From UHGV virus genome UHGV-0139594: a stretch of 32,537 bases of DNA; one strand, given 5' to 3'. Below, piece by piece: positions 2,790 through 6,637 of this stretch. The translations under genes and the position numbers were made by a program. The first letter of the stretch is position 1, and each line of letters opens with the position of its first letter. Source of the DNA: a virus. The notes under the pieces were generated by a model. That model did no database searches, was not told the DNA's origin, and saw only the letters and a program-made list of their open reading frames with translations.

Positions 2790-3260
2790 TTCGGGTAAAA
2801 GGAAGCCCTCACCGTCCGGCGATTATTGAGTCAATTACATTTCCATAAATGCCCCCGTAGGGGCGGTTAGTTTCTCCACAAAACAGAGAAGAACACCTGC
2901 GGTGGCAGCCGCCCGGATGGATTGGGTTATGAGCCCGTCGTCCGGTGATGCTCTTCTCTGTTTTGTAAAAAGGACGGTACCAGCCGGAAGCAAGGGTACA
3001 AGCTGGTACCGCCAAGACTACACACAGCATAAAGTTGTGGTGCCGGGTGCCTCCCGGTGCCTGGCGAAGGTTGCACACCAGGCGGGTGGGTATCCACAGA
3101 AGGTCGACTGTCAGCCTCAACCTTAACCCGCGTGCGCTGAGCCGCATTCACCACAACGCTAAGGATTCTCTCTGGTTGAAAATACTTAGCTGTTATGTGC
3201 CTGTCTTTTCACCACTTCAGGCTCGGTGGTATCCTTTTAAGCCCGTATACATAAAAGGAA
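2790..3260. other. GC-rich, ORF-poor segment with nested inverted repeats; candidate structured RNA or degraded insert
   Basis: No convincing ORF; several overlapping junk ORFs in multiple frames. Long-range complementary segments: ACAAAACAGAGAAGA/TCTTCTCTGTTTTGT, GGTACCAGC/GCTGGTACC, GTTGTGGTG/CACCACAAC, CCCCGTAGGGG. Confidence 0.25.
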
Positions 3261-3266
3261 AATCAA

Positions 3267-3512
3267 ATGACTTTTGATGAAAAAGAACTTGATAATGCAA
3301 TTAATAAAATCATCGTAACGTCGCTCTTTTCCTGTCTCAGCGACACTCAGCAAAAACAGTTCTACGAATCGGCTTTCAACATGATCGAGCGTTGTTGTTT
3401 CTGCGATGCCGACGAGTTACCTGAAAAAATCAGGAAACAGTTGGCTGATGCTCTTCGAGTGCGACTTTCTGACCAATTTTCTGAAATGTACTCTCCGAAT
3501 TTGGACAAATAG
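3267..3512 (+). CDS. Hypothetical protein (81 aa)
   Basis: ORF with AAGGAA-type RBS upstream of ATG. Plus-strand gene inside an otherwise minus-strand early-left region. Confidence 0.45.
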   Translation: MTFDEKELDNAINKIIVTSLFSCLSDTQQKQFYESAFNMIERCCFCDADELPEKIRKQLADALRVRLSDQFSEMYSPNLDK

Positions 3513-3705
3513 AAAAAGGCCATTTCCATTCAGGGTCTGATGGAAAGACTTCAGCCTGTTCTAAAGCACGGCGTAAAGAGAACACAACTCCAGCCATAAT
3601 CTGATGTTTCCCATTGGTCCAGCTATCGCCGCTCTGATCTACAGGAGCGGCTATGTCGTATGACCAAACGACTTCACCACTATTGTTTAAAATCTGGACT
3701 TTCAT
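3430..3705 (-). CDS. Hypothetical protein (91 aa)
   Basis: ORF downstream of the zinc-finger gene in the leftward operon. Its 3' end overlaps the convergent 3267..3512 ORF, so true extent is uncertain. Confidence 0.35.
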   Translation of the reverse strand: MKVQILNNSGEVVWSYDIAAPVDQSGDSWTNGKHQIMAGVVFSLRRALEQAEVFPSDPEWKWPFSICPNSESTFQKIGQKVALEEHQPTVS

Positions 3706-3713
3706 TTTGTTCT

Positions 3714-3917
3714 TTAACCTCCAGATTTCCGCGCATCTAAAGGCGCATTCTCATTTGGTGTGAACTGAATAGTTGTGCTGATATTGATTAATGCCCCGAC
3801 ACACAAGACTACGCACTCAGAGCAGATAGCAACTTCATCTTTTCCGCCTTTGGCGATGATTTTTTTTGCCTGCAGCTCGTTTGCGCCACAAAACGAGCAT
3901 GTGAAATAACGGTTCAT
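3714..3917 (-). CDS. Small ClpX-type C4 zinc-finger protein (first gene of leftward early operon)
   Basis: MNRYFTCSFCGANELQAKKIIAKGGKDEVAICSECVVLC resembles the ClpX N-terminal zinc-binding domain (CxxC...CxxC). Start chosen at the second ATG, which has an AAGAGAG RBS. Confidence 0.55.
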   Translation of the reverse strand: MNRYFTCSFCGANELQAKKIIAKGGKDEVAICSECVVLCVGALINISTTIQFTPNENAPLDARKSGG

Positions 3918-4004
3918 TTGCGCTCTCTTACACATAGTATTTAACGAATCATCCGGTCATTCATACGCCACCGGCGGCTACTTCGTGGGCGTCCTGCCTG
4001 TTCG

Positions 4005-4080
4005 TTGTTTTAACACCTTTAAGTTGTAATTTAGTTGTGGTTTTGAATGTTGTCAACAACTTTATGTGGTTTGAACGAGT
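4005..4080. promoter_or_regulatory. OL-like operator/promoter region (divergent promoters)
   Basis: Contains motif blocks CACCTTTAAGTTGT, AGTTGT, ATGTTGT and ACAACTTTATGT that recur, rearranged, in the cI-cro intergenic region. Confidence 0.45.
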
Positions 4081-4119
4081 AGCCAAGGAGTGCAAGGATT
4101 ATCAAAAAAAGGAGGTTGT

Positions 4120-5010
4120 ATGGAAGACGCGCTTTACGCTTTTAATTACACACAGAACCGGGACAAGTTATTTGCTAACTTGATTAGCATCATTGATGGA
4201 ATCATTGCAGATGGAGTTGTCCGTGAAGAGGAGGTTCTTTACTTAGATACATGGTTACTTGAAGCAAAGCAGATTATCAATAATGGAGTTATAAAAAGTC
4301 TATCAGCACGGGTGTCGGATATTCTTGCGGATGGAATAATCACATCAGAAGAACGTGATGACCTTAAAAATAGCCTTCTCCAAATACAGAGGGAAATTCT
4401 TGATATCCCTGAAATTGATTTTTACTCCAAGGATGTAGATGTCCATTTACTTAATGGACTATGTAAAGGATTAATTGCTGATCGGAACTTAACTCAAGAA
4501 GAAATAAGATATCTTAATTGGTGGCTTGAGCAAAATGGAGCTTTGAAGAACAACTACCCAGGAAAAAAACTTTATGCACTTGTAAAGGAAATTCTTAAAG
4601 ATGGTGTTATTACTGAAGATGAGAGTTTAACTCTACATAAGGCATTAGTAGACTTCACAGGATGTGACTTGGAAAGTGGGGTGGTGGATGGTTTGGCGAC
4701 CAGGCTGCCTATTGATGTAGGGGCTTCGATAGAGTTAGAGGGTAAAACCTATTGTCTTACAGGCACTTTTGTTGCAGGAAAGAGAGCCGTAGTTGAAAAT
4801 TTGATTAAAAATGCTGGTGGGAACATCAGTAGTGGAATTACTCAAAAGTTGGATTTTTTAGTAATTGGGACGCTTTCCTCCCGTGATTGGAAATTCTCAA
4901 GTCACGGAAGGAAGATCGAAAAGGCTATATCTTATAGGGATGATAATGGTGCAAAACTTAAAATTATTTCTGAAGAAATGCTTTTCGATGCATTACCAAG
5001 TTCGCGATGA
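4120..5010 (+). CDS. Accessory protein with four tandem TerB-like (ADG...EE) helical repeats and a C-terminal BRCT domain
   Basis: GGAGG RBS 4 nt before ATG 4120. Repeats IADGVVREEEVLYLDTWLL, LADGIITSEERDDLKNSLL, IADRNLTQEEIRYLNWWLE, LKDGVITEDESLTLHKALV. C-terminus GKTYCLTGTF...GKRAVVENLIKNAGGNISSGITQKLDFLVIG resembles the LigA-type BRCT domain. Confidence 0.8.
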   Translation: MEDALYAFNYTQNRDKLFANLISIIDGIIADGVVREEEVLYLDTWLLEAKQIINNGVIKSLSARVSDILADGIITSEERDDLKNSLLQIQREILDIPEIDFYSKDVDVHLLNGLCKGLIADRNLTQEEIRYLNWWLEQNGALKNNYPGKKLYALVKEILKDGVITEDESLTLHKALVDFTGCDLESGVVDGLATRLPIDVGASIELEGKTYCLTGTFVAGKRAVVENLIKNAGGNISSGITQKLDFLVIGTLSSRDWKFSSHGRKIEKAISYRDDNGAKLKIISEEMLFDALPSSR

Positions 5011-5679
5011 CCAGAATACCCTACCTATAACATGAATTCTGGCTCGTCTATCTTCAAAGGTGAGTATTTCATCTGGGTACTCATCTTTGTTGAAGCTTCT
5101 AAGAATCAAGCCACCGTCAGGTAAGTTGATAAGTATTTTAACCCTTAGCAATACACCATCTCGTACGGCATAAAGATCGCCATCACGAATAGGAACGGTT
5201 TGAGAAATATCAACGGCAACAAGATCTCCATTATTGAGAACCGGTAATAAACTGTTCCCCCATATTTTTACGATCTTGGCATTAGATGCACATACGCCAG
5301 ATTTTCTCAAATCTGCTCTTCTTAATGGAAACCAGTCAATAGCTGATTCAACTATTTCAGCCAGACATCCGTTACCTGCCGATAACTCGACATCTAAAAC
5401 AGGAATGTTTACGAAAATATCGGGGTCTAATGCGGTGCTTTCTGCTTCTTTTACAACAAGATCAGGTATGGATGCGTTGTCTTCAATACCAAGTTGTAAC
5501 CACTTTTGTGATACACCTAAAACTTTTGCAATTTCTTTAATTTTGCGCGGTTGTAGAGTTTCGCCATTCTCTATTTTGGCTACAGATTGTTGTGAAAGTC
5601 CAATTTTTTCAGCTAGTTGAGCTTGGCTCATGCCAGCTTTCTCTCTACCTATCTTTAATCGTTCTGCCAGTGTTTTCAC
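4993..5679 (-). CDS. cI: CI-like prophage repressor (XRE-type HTH + S24 LexA-like peptidase domain)
   Basis: N-terminal HTH (MSQAQLAEKIGLSQQSVAKIENGE) and C-terminal S24 autopeptidase-like region. Divergent from the cro-like gene across an operator-rich intergenic region. Confidence 0.88.
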   Translation of the reverse strand: MKTLAERLKIGREKAGMSQAQLAEKIGLSQQSVAKIENGETLQPRKIKEIAKVLGVSQKWLQLGIEDNASIPDLVVKEAESTALDPDIFVNIPVLDVELSAGNGCLAEIVESAIDWFPLRRADLRKSGVCASNAKIVKIWGNSLLPVLNNGDLVAVDISQTVPIRDGDLYAVRDGVLLRVKILINLPDGGLILRSFNKDEYPDEILTFEDRRARIHVIGRVFWSSRTW

Positions 5680-5689
5680 AACATATCCC

Positions 5690-5805
5690 TCTCTTTTTTG
5701 ATGAGGTTACAACTTTATGTTTTAGCTTTCCAACACCTAAAAGTTGTGATAAAAGTTGTTAATGTTGTATTCTTGCAACTCGTAACAACTTAACTACCTA
5801 AAAAG
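5690..5805. promoter_or_regulatory. OR-like operator/promoter region between cI and cro
   Basis: Repeated half-site-like motifs ACAACTTTATGT, CACCTAAAAGTTGT, AAGTTGT, ATGTTGT, CAACTCGTAACAACTT. Confidence 0.5.
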
Positions 5806-5814
5806 GAGAAAGCT

Positions 5815-6063
5815 ATGACACCTGAGCAATTAGCCTTATCGGAGGCAATCGCTCTGGCTGGTGGTCAATCAGAATTGGCTCGGAAGCTCACAGCCAGCAG
5901 CGGTCATTTAGTAAAGCAACAACATGTCTGGAACTGGTTGAACAGAGAAAAGCGTCCCCCTGCAAAGCTCTCGATATTCATTGAAAAGACCACTGGCATA
6001 TCAAAAGAAAAATTACGTCCAGATATTTTTCAAAAGATTAAAGATTCATCAGATGAAAAGTAA
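5815..6063 (+). CDS. cro: Cro-like (YdaS-like) HTH regulator
   Basis: 82-aa ORF with AAGGAG RBS, divergent from the repressor; HTH-like segment and typical position. Confidence 0.75.
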   Translation: MTPEQLALSEAIALAGGQSELARKLTASSGHLVKQQHVWNWLNREKRPPAKLSIFIEKTTGISKEKLRPDIFQKIKDSSDEK

Positions 6064-6085
6064 CCACAGTTTTAAGGAGATAGCC

Positions 6086-6637
6086 GTGGGTAAGCATCAC
6101 TGGAAAGTAGAAAAACAGCCTAAGTGGTACGTGAAAGCTGTCAGAAAAACTATCGCGGCGTTGCCGGGTGGTTACGCTGAAGCTGCTGACTGGCTGGATG
6201 TAACAGAGAACGCATTATTTAACCGCCTTCGTGCCGATGGCGATCAGATTTTCCCGCTGGGATGGGCAATGGTTTTACAGCGCGCAGCTGGCACTCACTA
6301 CATTGCGGATGCTGTCGCACAGTCTGCTGGTGGGGTGTTCGTATCGCTTCCTGAAATTGAGGAAGTAGAGAACGCCGATATAAACCAGCGCCTGCTGGAA
6401 GTCATCGAACAGATCGGGAGTTACTCAAAGCAGATTCGTTCGGCAATCGAAGATGGGGTAGTGGAGCCACACGAGCAGACAGCAATTAACGACGAGCTGT
6501 ATCTCTCAATTTCGAAGCTGCAGGAGCATGCAGCACTGGTCTACAAAATCTTTTGCATTTCAGAAAGTAATGACGCCCGCGAGTGTGCAGCTCCGGGCGC
6601 CGTGGCGTGTCGTGACTGTGGAGAAACTAACGCATGA
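6086..6637 (+). CDS. CII-like regulatory protein (phage 186 CII / CP76 family-like)
   Basis: Directly after cro. GTG at 6086 has an AAGGAG RBS; ATG at 6053 is an alternative start. Family call is weak recollection only. Confidence 0.55.

Follow-up and report, generated by a model that had tools for sequence, protein, structure and literature searches.

A repressor-linked prophage protein with hairpin repeats and a BRCT domain, and its possible role in exclusion by the lysogen

The virus genome UHGV-0139594 (32,537 nucleotides; below, "the window" means this whole stretch) is a lambdoid prophage of Escherichia coli, whose integration site is a tRNA-Thr gene beside proA. Between its leftward operator region and its cI-type repressor gene lies a gene for a protein of 296 residues which combines helical repeats with a C-terminal BRCT domain and which we call the BRCT protein. 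In the reading that we favour, with a probability of roughly 0.4, it is a sensor of phosphate groups, DNA ends or nicks that is expressed in the lysogen and acts in exclusion. The gene product would be a cytoplasmic, non-enzymatic adaptor of two parts, a helical domain and a BRCT domain, connected by a flexible linker. Made in the lysogen, it would recognise with its BRCT pocket a phosphate-bearing ligand that appears with foreign or damaged DNA, most likely a 5'-phosphorylated DNA end or nick, and would block superinfecting phage. It might do so directly, if it caps or occupies ends and nicks in need of ligation or replication, or indirectly, by means of an effector engaged through the helical domain. 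Expression in the lysogen, the ligand and the exclusion phenotype are points which we infer rather than observe; what we show are the gene, its fold and repeats, the conservation of the pocket, the association with cI, the distribution of the family and the domains of its partners.

The argument for this reading starts from the relatives of the protein, in which the same module is joined to interchangeable effectors: a DEDDh exonuclease, an Hhe-like helicase-nuclease or a K+ channel. With its conserved BRCT pocket and with effector partners whose targets are DNA or the membrane, the module has the look of a unit for sensing or targeting. The location of the gene, beside the repressor in the window and inside the lysogenic operon of P2-like phages, fits exclusion by a lysogen-expressed protein. 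Genes adjacent to prophage repressors, such as rexAB, stk and bstA, have repeatedly proved to be immunity factors expressed in the lysogen.

The first-pass annotation, which was made from the sequence alone, had likened the C-terminus to the BRCT domain of NAD-dependent DNA ligases. Pfam, structure prediction and Foldseek agree on a BRCT domain of the LigA/RFC1 class. Residues 206-290 match PF00533 with 29.0 bits (gathering cut-off 21.3); a match to this model was also obtained for 75 of 78 family members. In the AlphaFold2 (AF2) model computed from an alignment of 41 diverse homologues (mean predicted local distance difference test, pLDDT, of 84.8; another AF2 model gave 88.8), strands comprising residues 210-214, 235-237, 246-249 and 281-284 and helices comprising residues 222-231, 261-276 and 285-291 succeed each other in the order beta-alpha-beta-beta-alpha-beta-alpha, which is that of solved BRCT domains. 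The best Foldseek matches in the PDB are the BRCT domains of RFC1, LigA, XRCC1, LigIII and PARP1 (2ebu, 2k7f, 6wh1, 3pc6, 2cok), and by sequence, the RFC1 BRCT domains 2ebu and 2k6g are the closest PDB entries (E = 2e-3).

Residue conservation was determined in 78 homologues which are 26-82% identical to the window protein. W257 and G263 are invariant (78/78); T214 is conserved in 74, G215 and R222 in 76 each, and K265 in 77 of these sequences, most of which also have a lysine at position 242 or 243. Judged by its residues, the phosphate-binding pocket appears intact, with S/T-G after beta1, the lysine in alpha2 and the Arg/Lys of the LigA/RFC1 class. BRCT domains of this class bind 5'-phosphorylated DNA. 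The BRCT domains of LigA and RFC1 (p140), which are the best matches in both sequence and structure, share the T-G, R and K pocket residues with the window protein. Unlike these, however, the domain studied here is joined to helical repeats, not to a ligase or clamp-loader body, and contains an insertion specific to its family, the S-R-D-W...G-R-K stretch to which W257, G263 and K265 belong.

The N-terminal part of the protein is an array of helical hairpins. Aligned with each other, its two halves (residues 1-98 and 99-185) score 108 by Smith-Waterman versus 26 +/- 5 for shuffled sequences, none of which (0/2000) reached 108; on the profile level, hhalign gave a probability of 99.7% (E = 2.4e-25). 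The array consists of two copies of a unit of about 90 residues, each of which contains an A-type hairpin with the consensus GILxGIxAD-x6-E..L..WL followed by a B-type hairpin with the consensus DILxDGxIT..E..DL. The AF2 model has nine helices over residues 2-180, followed by a linker (181-205) of low confidence. The four repeats seen in the first pass are borne out as an internal duplication of two units with four D-x6-E hairpins, and their proposed likeness to TerB is weak. Weak Pfam TerB matches were found for 16 of the 78 members (best E = 9.5e-5), and six match DUF533; the window protein, however, has no match to TerB (PF05099) at E <= 5, and hhalign of the N-terminal profile against single TerB and DjlA sequences aligned only the xDGx5E motif of about 20-22 residues, with a probability below 1%. 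What the family has in common with TerB and the N-terminal domain of DjlA (PF05099) are helical hairpins and a paired 'a-D-G-x5-E' motif. A Foldseek comparison of the N-terminal domain with viral models gave nothing significant (best E = 0.31), and the N-terminal alignment, used as a profile against PDB sequences, returned only chance-level matches to EF-hand loops.

A single copy of the hairpin motif occurs in the CII-position protein of the window (YmfL; Pfam Phage_CP76), which is encoded at 6086-6637 on the + strand. The BRCT protein weakly matches the YmfL model NF041471 (E = 1.6e-4) and phrog_6499, and five members of its family match Phage_CP76; hhalign of the N-terminal profile against a single YmfL sequence aligned the motif of 20-22 residues alone. 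The hairpin may be a common phage regulatory building block.

Over nearly its whole length (residues 2-295, profile positions 2-295 of 296), the protein matches PHROG 3989 (E = 1.5e-128), whose function category is unknown. An exhaustive search of representatives at 50% identity yielded 1596 clusters at E < 1e-10. Two forms prevail, one of about 295 residues with four hairpins and a BRCT domain, and one of about 210 residues with two hairpins and a BRCT domain. In addition, the module occurs in several fusions: with an N-terminal DEDDh exonuclease, which is the PADLOC candidate PDC-S48 (P0221, E = 4e-33); with a second BRCT domain preceded by HhH2, that is, a LigA-like HhH2-BRCT tail; and at the C-terminus of a protein of 2042 residues with a helicase and an MTES_1575 nuclease, which matches PADLOC PDC-S37, MkoA and Hhe.

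Residues 119-251 of the window protein match positions 239-377 of the 411 positions of the PDC-S48 profile (E = 2.4e-7), and no match to an RNase_T/DEDDh exonuclease domain was found in the window protein. Since the match covers the sensor half only, the window protein is not a member of PDC-S48 and shares a module with it. Common to both are the helical repeats and the BRCT region; the window protein, in contrast, is without the exonuclease, carries four hairpins rather than two and is linked to a repressor. Another counterpart is Orf2 of Vibrio phage K139 (NP_536630.1), which has the same architecture and is 32.6% identical over 95% of the length. Both K139 Orf2 and the kp3 product of phage Kappa belong to the family, and their genes adjoin the repressor gene in the immunity region. 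However, K139 orf2 is co-directional with cI in a P2-like phage, whereas the window gene is convergent, overlaps cI by 18 bp and resides in a lambdoid prophage. The novelty of the architecture, which the first-pass annotation had implied, cannot be upheld, as it is already present in RefSeq under the name 'BRCT domain-containing protein', in PHROG 3989 and in the deposited annotation of K139 (orf2). The protein belongs to the BRCT superfamily and to the family of PHROG 3989 and K139 Orf2, and not to Rex, LigA or PDC-S48; its gene is an accessory gene of the prophage, linked to the repressor and built on a module which defence candidates have as well.

Partners encoded by separate genes add to the fusions. 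In six otherwise unrelated loci, a voltage-gated-type K+ channel of about 240 residues (Pfam Ion_trans, TVGYGD filter) forms a tight operon with a family member. The two genes occur in either order, with a spacing between an 8-nt overlap and a 27-nt gap, and two of the six pairs lie between cI and int of K139-like prophages. The channel of these pairs has no PADLOC match; together with the BRCT protein it could constitute a Rex-like pair of sensor and channel. In Hymenobacter, the short form with two hairpins and a BRCT domain is encoded directly 3' of a separate DEDDh exonuclease gene, which corresponds to a split PDC-S48. A Shewanella copy adjoins AbiE and Fic, and the genes that come after an Oceanimonas copy include GmrSD and HEPN genes.

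The BRCT gene travels with the repressor gene as a fixed cassette of low GC content. Across about 3900-6100, which comprises the BRCT gene, cI and cro, GC amounts to 37-40%, while the phage genes on either side have about 51%, which would agree with an immunity module exchanged on its own. Related cI genes of other lambdoid phages have different genes in this slot, in a Stx1 phage other small open reading frames. In the window, the BRCT and repressor genes are convergent and their 3' ends overlap by 18 bp (4993-5010), just as had been noticed in the first pass. The repressor is lambda-CI-like: its full-length alignment with lambda CI gives 25% identity (E = 7e-6). Among 80 relatives on viral contigs with at least 55% identity, a convergent cI was kept in 74, and 71 overlap it by 9, 15 or 18 bp. 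The same arrangement was present in all of 10 species-level Enterobacterales loci, and it persists in Citrobacter and Serratia prophages with different flanks and other modules. In P2-like or other phage loci, the gene is situated directly 3' of cI and on the same strand in 13 of 16 cases; such homologues were found in K139, in Aeromonas, Oceanimonas and Aliivibrio and in metagenomic prophages. In these loci, the BRCT gene is followed by variable cargo (glo, the K+ channel or unknown genes for 232-518 residues) and then by int. These loci show the co-occurrence in immunity regions of related prophages which the first-pass annotation had proposed to look for, and the site is known to accommodate lysogen-expressed accessory genes: homologues directly follow cI, and in the deposited annotation of K139, cI-orf2-glo-int is designated the lysogenic operon of PL, for which a mapped transcription start is given. 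Lysogenic expression of this homologue is therefore taken from the depositors' annotation.

In Aeromonas-type P2-like prophages, tandem paralogues follow cI, a short form of 206 residues and then a long form of 296 residues.

With respect to the regulatory sites, two motifs upstream of the BRCT gene occur a second time between cI and the cro-position gene: ACAACTTTATGT is found at 4056-4067 and at 5709-5720, and AACACCTWWAAGTTGT at 4012-4027 and at 5732-5747. By chance, 0.37 matches of the former and 0.08 of the latter are expected per window, and both are far commoner than in shuffled sequence. As these motifs of the leftward operator (OL) recur at the rightward operator (OR), and as a good leftward promoter of the PL type lies upstream (4056 to 4028), the BRCT gene is located between OL/PL and cI, which upholds the location assigned to it in the first pass. 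An alignment of the upstream regions of loci from E. coli, Pseudomonas lundensis, Serratia, Providencia, Proteus and Rosenbergiella showed, besides operators and PL, a conserved TTGA immediately 3' of the operator at 4056-4067 and a second conserved element, AAGGAT (AACTAT in Proteus), 17 nt past TTGA and about 10 nt 5' of the ribosome-binding site. The spacing of TTGA and AAGGAT is the same in the E. coli, Serratia, Providencia and Rosenbergiella loci. From its letters, TTGAAC-17-AAGGAT can be read as a weak candidate promoter of the BRCT gene, whose spacer of 17 nt carries a TG at 4091-4092. Placed back to back with PL around an operator, it resembles the layout of lambda PR and PRM. Of the promoter which the first-pass annotation had placed within the OL region, a conserved candidate remains, poor as it is and failing the consensus scan.

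Several findings speak against exclusion by a lysogen-expressed sensor. The window protein has no effector domain, and no partner gene adjoins it in the window. No promoter on the + strand upstream of the gene passes a sigma-70 consensus scan, and expression of the gene in the lysogen studied here, where it runs towards cI, would have to come from this weak candidate promoter. The BRCT gene is constant beside cI while the cargo of the P2-like loci varies, an arrangement that suits control of lysogeny no less than an exchangeable defence gene. About 26 species of Pseudohongiella-like marine Gammaproteobacteria possess a chromosomal copy at a syntenic position, in whose vicinity phage genes are absent, and this conserved synteny suggests a cellular role. 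The copy is divergent from the genes for a membrane protein of about 114 residues and for a protein of about 480 residues without a Pfam domain, to which it is possibly linked in function, and an ABA4-like gene comes after it. Clear orthology to a housekeeping protein had been named in the first pass as a finding that would speak against the proposal, and these chromosomal copies touch upon it in part. The PDC entries of PADLOC are candidates only, and our literature search found no paper that gives a phenotype or function for any family member. Mycobacterial DnaQ-BRCT, which we compare by domain makeup alone, is reported to be a replication proofreader (bioRxiv 10.1101/2023.10.24.563508); an exonuclease combined with a BRCT domain is therefore not by itself a sign of defence.

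The missing effector, the constant cI neighbour and the stable chromosomal gene in one lineage make an accessory role in lysogeny, damage sensing or repair a serious rival, which we consider on balance somewhat unlikely. With its BRCT domain, the protein would then sense DNA damage in the form of breaks or nicks and tune what becomes of the prophage DNA or of the S24 repressor encoded next to it. It could, for instance, set the threshold of RecA-dependent CI cleavage, or help to seal nicks and repair DNA when the prophage is integrated, excised or replicated; it would be a recruited factor of cellular DNA metabolism and not an exclusion protein. Such a role would account for a gene which, in two phage architectures that are unrelated, keeps its place next to S24-type repressors whichever way it is oriented, as well as for a BRCT domain of the LigA/RFC1/DnaQ class, which is found in replication and repair proteins, for the fusions to LigA-like HhH2-BRCT tails and to DEDDh exonucleases, and for the vertical inheritance of the Pseudohongiella-like copies. 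However, homologues of the cI gene (36-44% identity) were found in 397 phage records and the BRCT family in only 17, and this type of repressor therefore does not need the BRCT protein. Operons with K+ channels and neighbours typical of defence islands are hard to explain by repair, and a gene-by-gene inspection of five Pseudohongiella-type loci and of the channel-operon loci detected no LexA/S24-type gene beside the family member.

The exclusion reading can also be extended to the whole family. The module would then serve as a movable sensor which detects ends of phage DNA, nicks or another phosphate-bearing signal of infection and which bacteria and prophages mount on interchangeable effectors, and the window protein a new single-gene factor of exclusion or abortive infection. 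Its stand-alone version might work by capping ends or by borrowing a host effector, and the pairing with a K+ channel would be a Rex-like depolarising pair. We regard this wider claim as rather doubtful.

The first-pass annotation had compared the site with that of the lambda exclusion genes, and indeed the slot between OL/PL and cI is the same as that of rexAB. The correspondence is one of position only. A RexA homologue was considered and rejected, as hhalign of the family profile against lambda RexA gave a probability of 0.9%; no membrane-protein gene that could represent a partner of the RexB type is found beside the BRCT gene in the window. In contrast to rexAB, the BRCT gene lies on the strand opposite cI, and co-transcription with cI from the maintenance promoter, absent in the window, is seen only in the P2-like relatives. 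The logic of RexA and RexB, a sensor of phage DNA with an effector, could nevertheless be similar, given the six relatives in an operon with an ion channel; these are Ion_trans K+ channels with a TVGYGD filter which Pfam does not name RexB-like, a distinction drawn by Pfam name alone.

Decidedly improbable, in our judgement, is a gene of the lytic phase that doubles as an antisense brake on cI. Its promoter would be repressed by CI at OL and fire only after induction or on infection, the transcript running into the 3' end of cI would help commitment to lysis, and the protein would serve replication or end protection of phage DNA. No terminator was found between the convergent BRCT and cI reading frames, so that antisense interference is possible, and the overlap of the 3' ends is conserved in 71 of the 80 relatives; moreover, the candidate -35 element is 4 bp away from an operator. 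This operator, however, overlaps neither the candidate -10 nor the -35 element. In P2-like phages, the homologue is read in the same direction as cI and lies 3' of it within the lysogenic operon, and the opposite regulatory logic of that arrangement makes the role less likely. Finally, the protein is strongly conserved down to 30% identity, which argues that the protein and not the transcript is under selection.

A remnant of an NAD-dependent DNA ligase or of the DNA polymerase III epsilon subunit, as might be supposed from database entries naming some members 'NAD-dependent DNA ligase' and from partial matches to the NCBIfam LigA and PRK06195 models, is ruled out by domain content: these matches are confined to the BRCT region and score 20-30 bits versus cut-offs of 369-1051, adenylation, OB, zinc-finger, HhH and exonuclease domains are all absent from the window protein, and the 1596 clusters with full-length conservation mark an intact gene of its own.

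The features of the window and the loci of relatives are compiled in Table 1. The open reading frame of 296 residues with its strong ribosome-binding site stands as described in the first pass, and RefSeq contains the identical coding sequence (WP_000389078.1, 'BRCT domain-containing protein'). Several complete genomes are 100% identical to the window over 3700-5700, and at least 80% of this segment is present in 47 of 5426 complete E. coli genomes. In deposited phage genomes, the cassette has no near-identical DNA match; matches are limited to the short conserved segment of the PL leader.

This segment, a non-coding stretch of about 70 bp just 3' of PL (3942-4015), is 87-98% identical in many otherwise different phages, among them SfV, SfII, SfIV, mEp460 and YeP1-3, and is probably the source of most of the 1401 partial matches in E. 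coli. An Rfam search of 3850-4130 found nothing, the PL leader folds no better than shuffled sequences (z = 0.2), and no N-like gene follows PL in the window. The first gene of the PL operon (3714-3935, - strand) encodes a protein of 72 residues made up of a ClpX-type C4 zinc finger. Such an early gene is unusual, and its product might interfere with the delivery of ClpX substrates. Further left, 2809-3300 has no convincing open reading frame, and RefSeq shows a frameshifted hypothetical gene at the corresponding position of the left arm; the region is likely a decayed gene.

Table 1. Positions of the features in the window and, in the last four rows, of loci of relatives (locus label, followed by positions within the locus where given).
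Feature	Position	Strand	Remarks
OL operator cluster	4012-4067		AACACCTTTAAGTTGT 4012-4027, ACAACTTTATGT 4056-4067; both recur at OR
PL-like leftward promoter	4028-4056	-	TTGACA 4056..4051, 17-nt spacer, TAAATT 4033..4028; consensus scan; conserved across loci
Candidate weak promoter of BRCT gene	4071-4099	+	-35 TTGAAC 4071-4076, -10 AAGGAT 4094-4099; inferred
Shine-Dalgarno sequence	4109-4116	+	AAGGAGG, 3 nt 5' of the ATG of the BRCT gene; conserved in homologous loci
BRCT gene	4120-5010	+	coding sequence, 296 residues, helical repeats and BRCT; ATG 4120, stop 5008-5010; WP_000389078.1; PHROG 3989
Hairpin repeat 1, A-type	4168-4266	+	residues 17-49; invariant G27, D31, E38, W45
Hairpin repeat 2, B-type	4288-4401	+	residues 57-94; DILADGIITSEE, D71-x6-E78
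Hairpin repeat 3, A-type	4429-4548	+	residues 104-143; invariant G117, E128; D121
Hairpin repeat 4, B-type	4561-4659	+	residues 148-180; ILKDGVITEDE, D161-x6-E168
Linker	4660-4734	+	residues 181-205; low model confidence, conserved G181
BRCT domain	4735-4992	+	residues 206-291; pocket T214, G215, R222, K243, K265; S254-R-D-W257...G263-R-K265 motif
cI-type repressor gene	4993-5679	-	XRE helix-turn-helix and peptidase S24, 228 residues; convergent, 18-bp 3' overlap with BRCT gene
OR copies of the two operator motifs	5709-5747		5709-5720, 5732-5747; motif recurrence between cI and cro
cro-position gene	5815-6063	+	Pfam YdaS_toxin family, matched by Cro-like helix-turn-helix proteins
K+ channel genes of channel/BRCT pairs	L040:5877-6587, L053:1006-1722, L058:4218-4934, L079:5852-6607, L087:4229-4954, L182:4897-5661
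Hymenobacter split loci	L091, L093-L096, L099 (around 4000-5600)
Pseudohongiella-like loci	L044-L075 and others, e.g. L011:2651-6399
Tandem-paralogue loci	L007-L009 (4362-4982 / 1606-2226), L183:3341-3961

The BRCT protein represents a large family with no assigned function, members of which occur in common prophages of Enterobacterales, Vibrio, Aeromonas and Pseudomonas. Should the signal which its BRCT pocket reads prove to be a DNA end or a phosphate, a BRCT domain would for the first time have a role in bacterial immunity or lysogeny, and the family would offer a simple sensor whose effectors can be read from the neighbouring genes. If, instead, the protein tunes repressor cleavage or the repair of prophage DNA, it would be a new component of the lambda-type switch.

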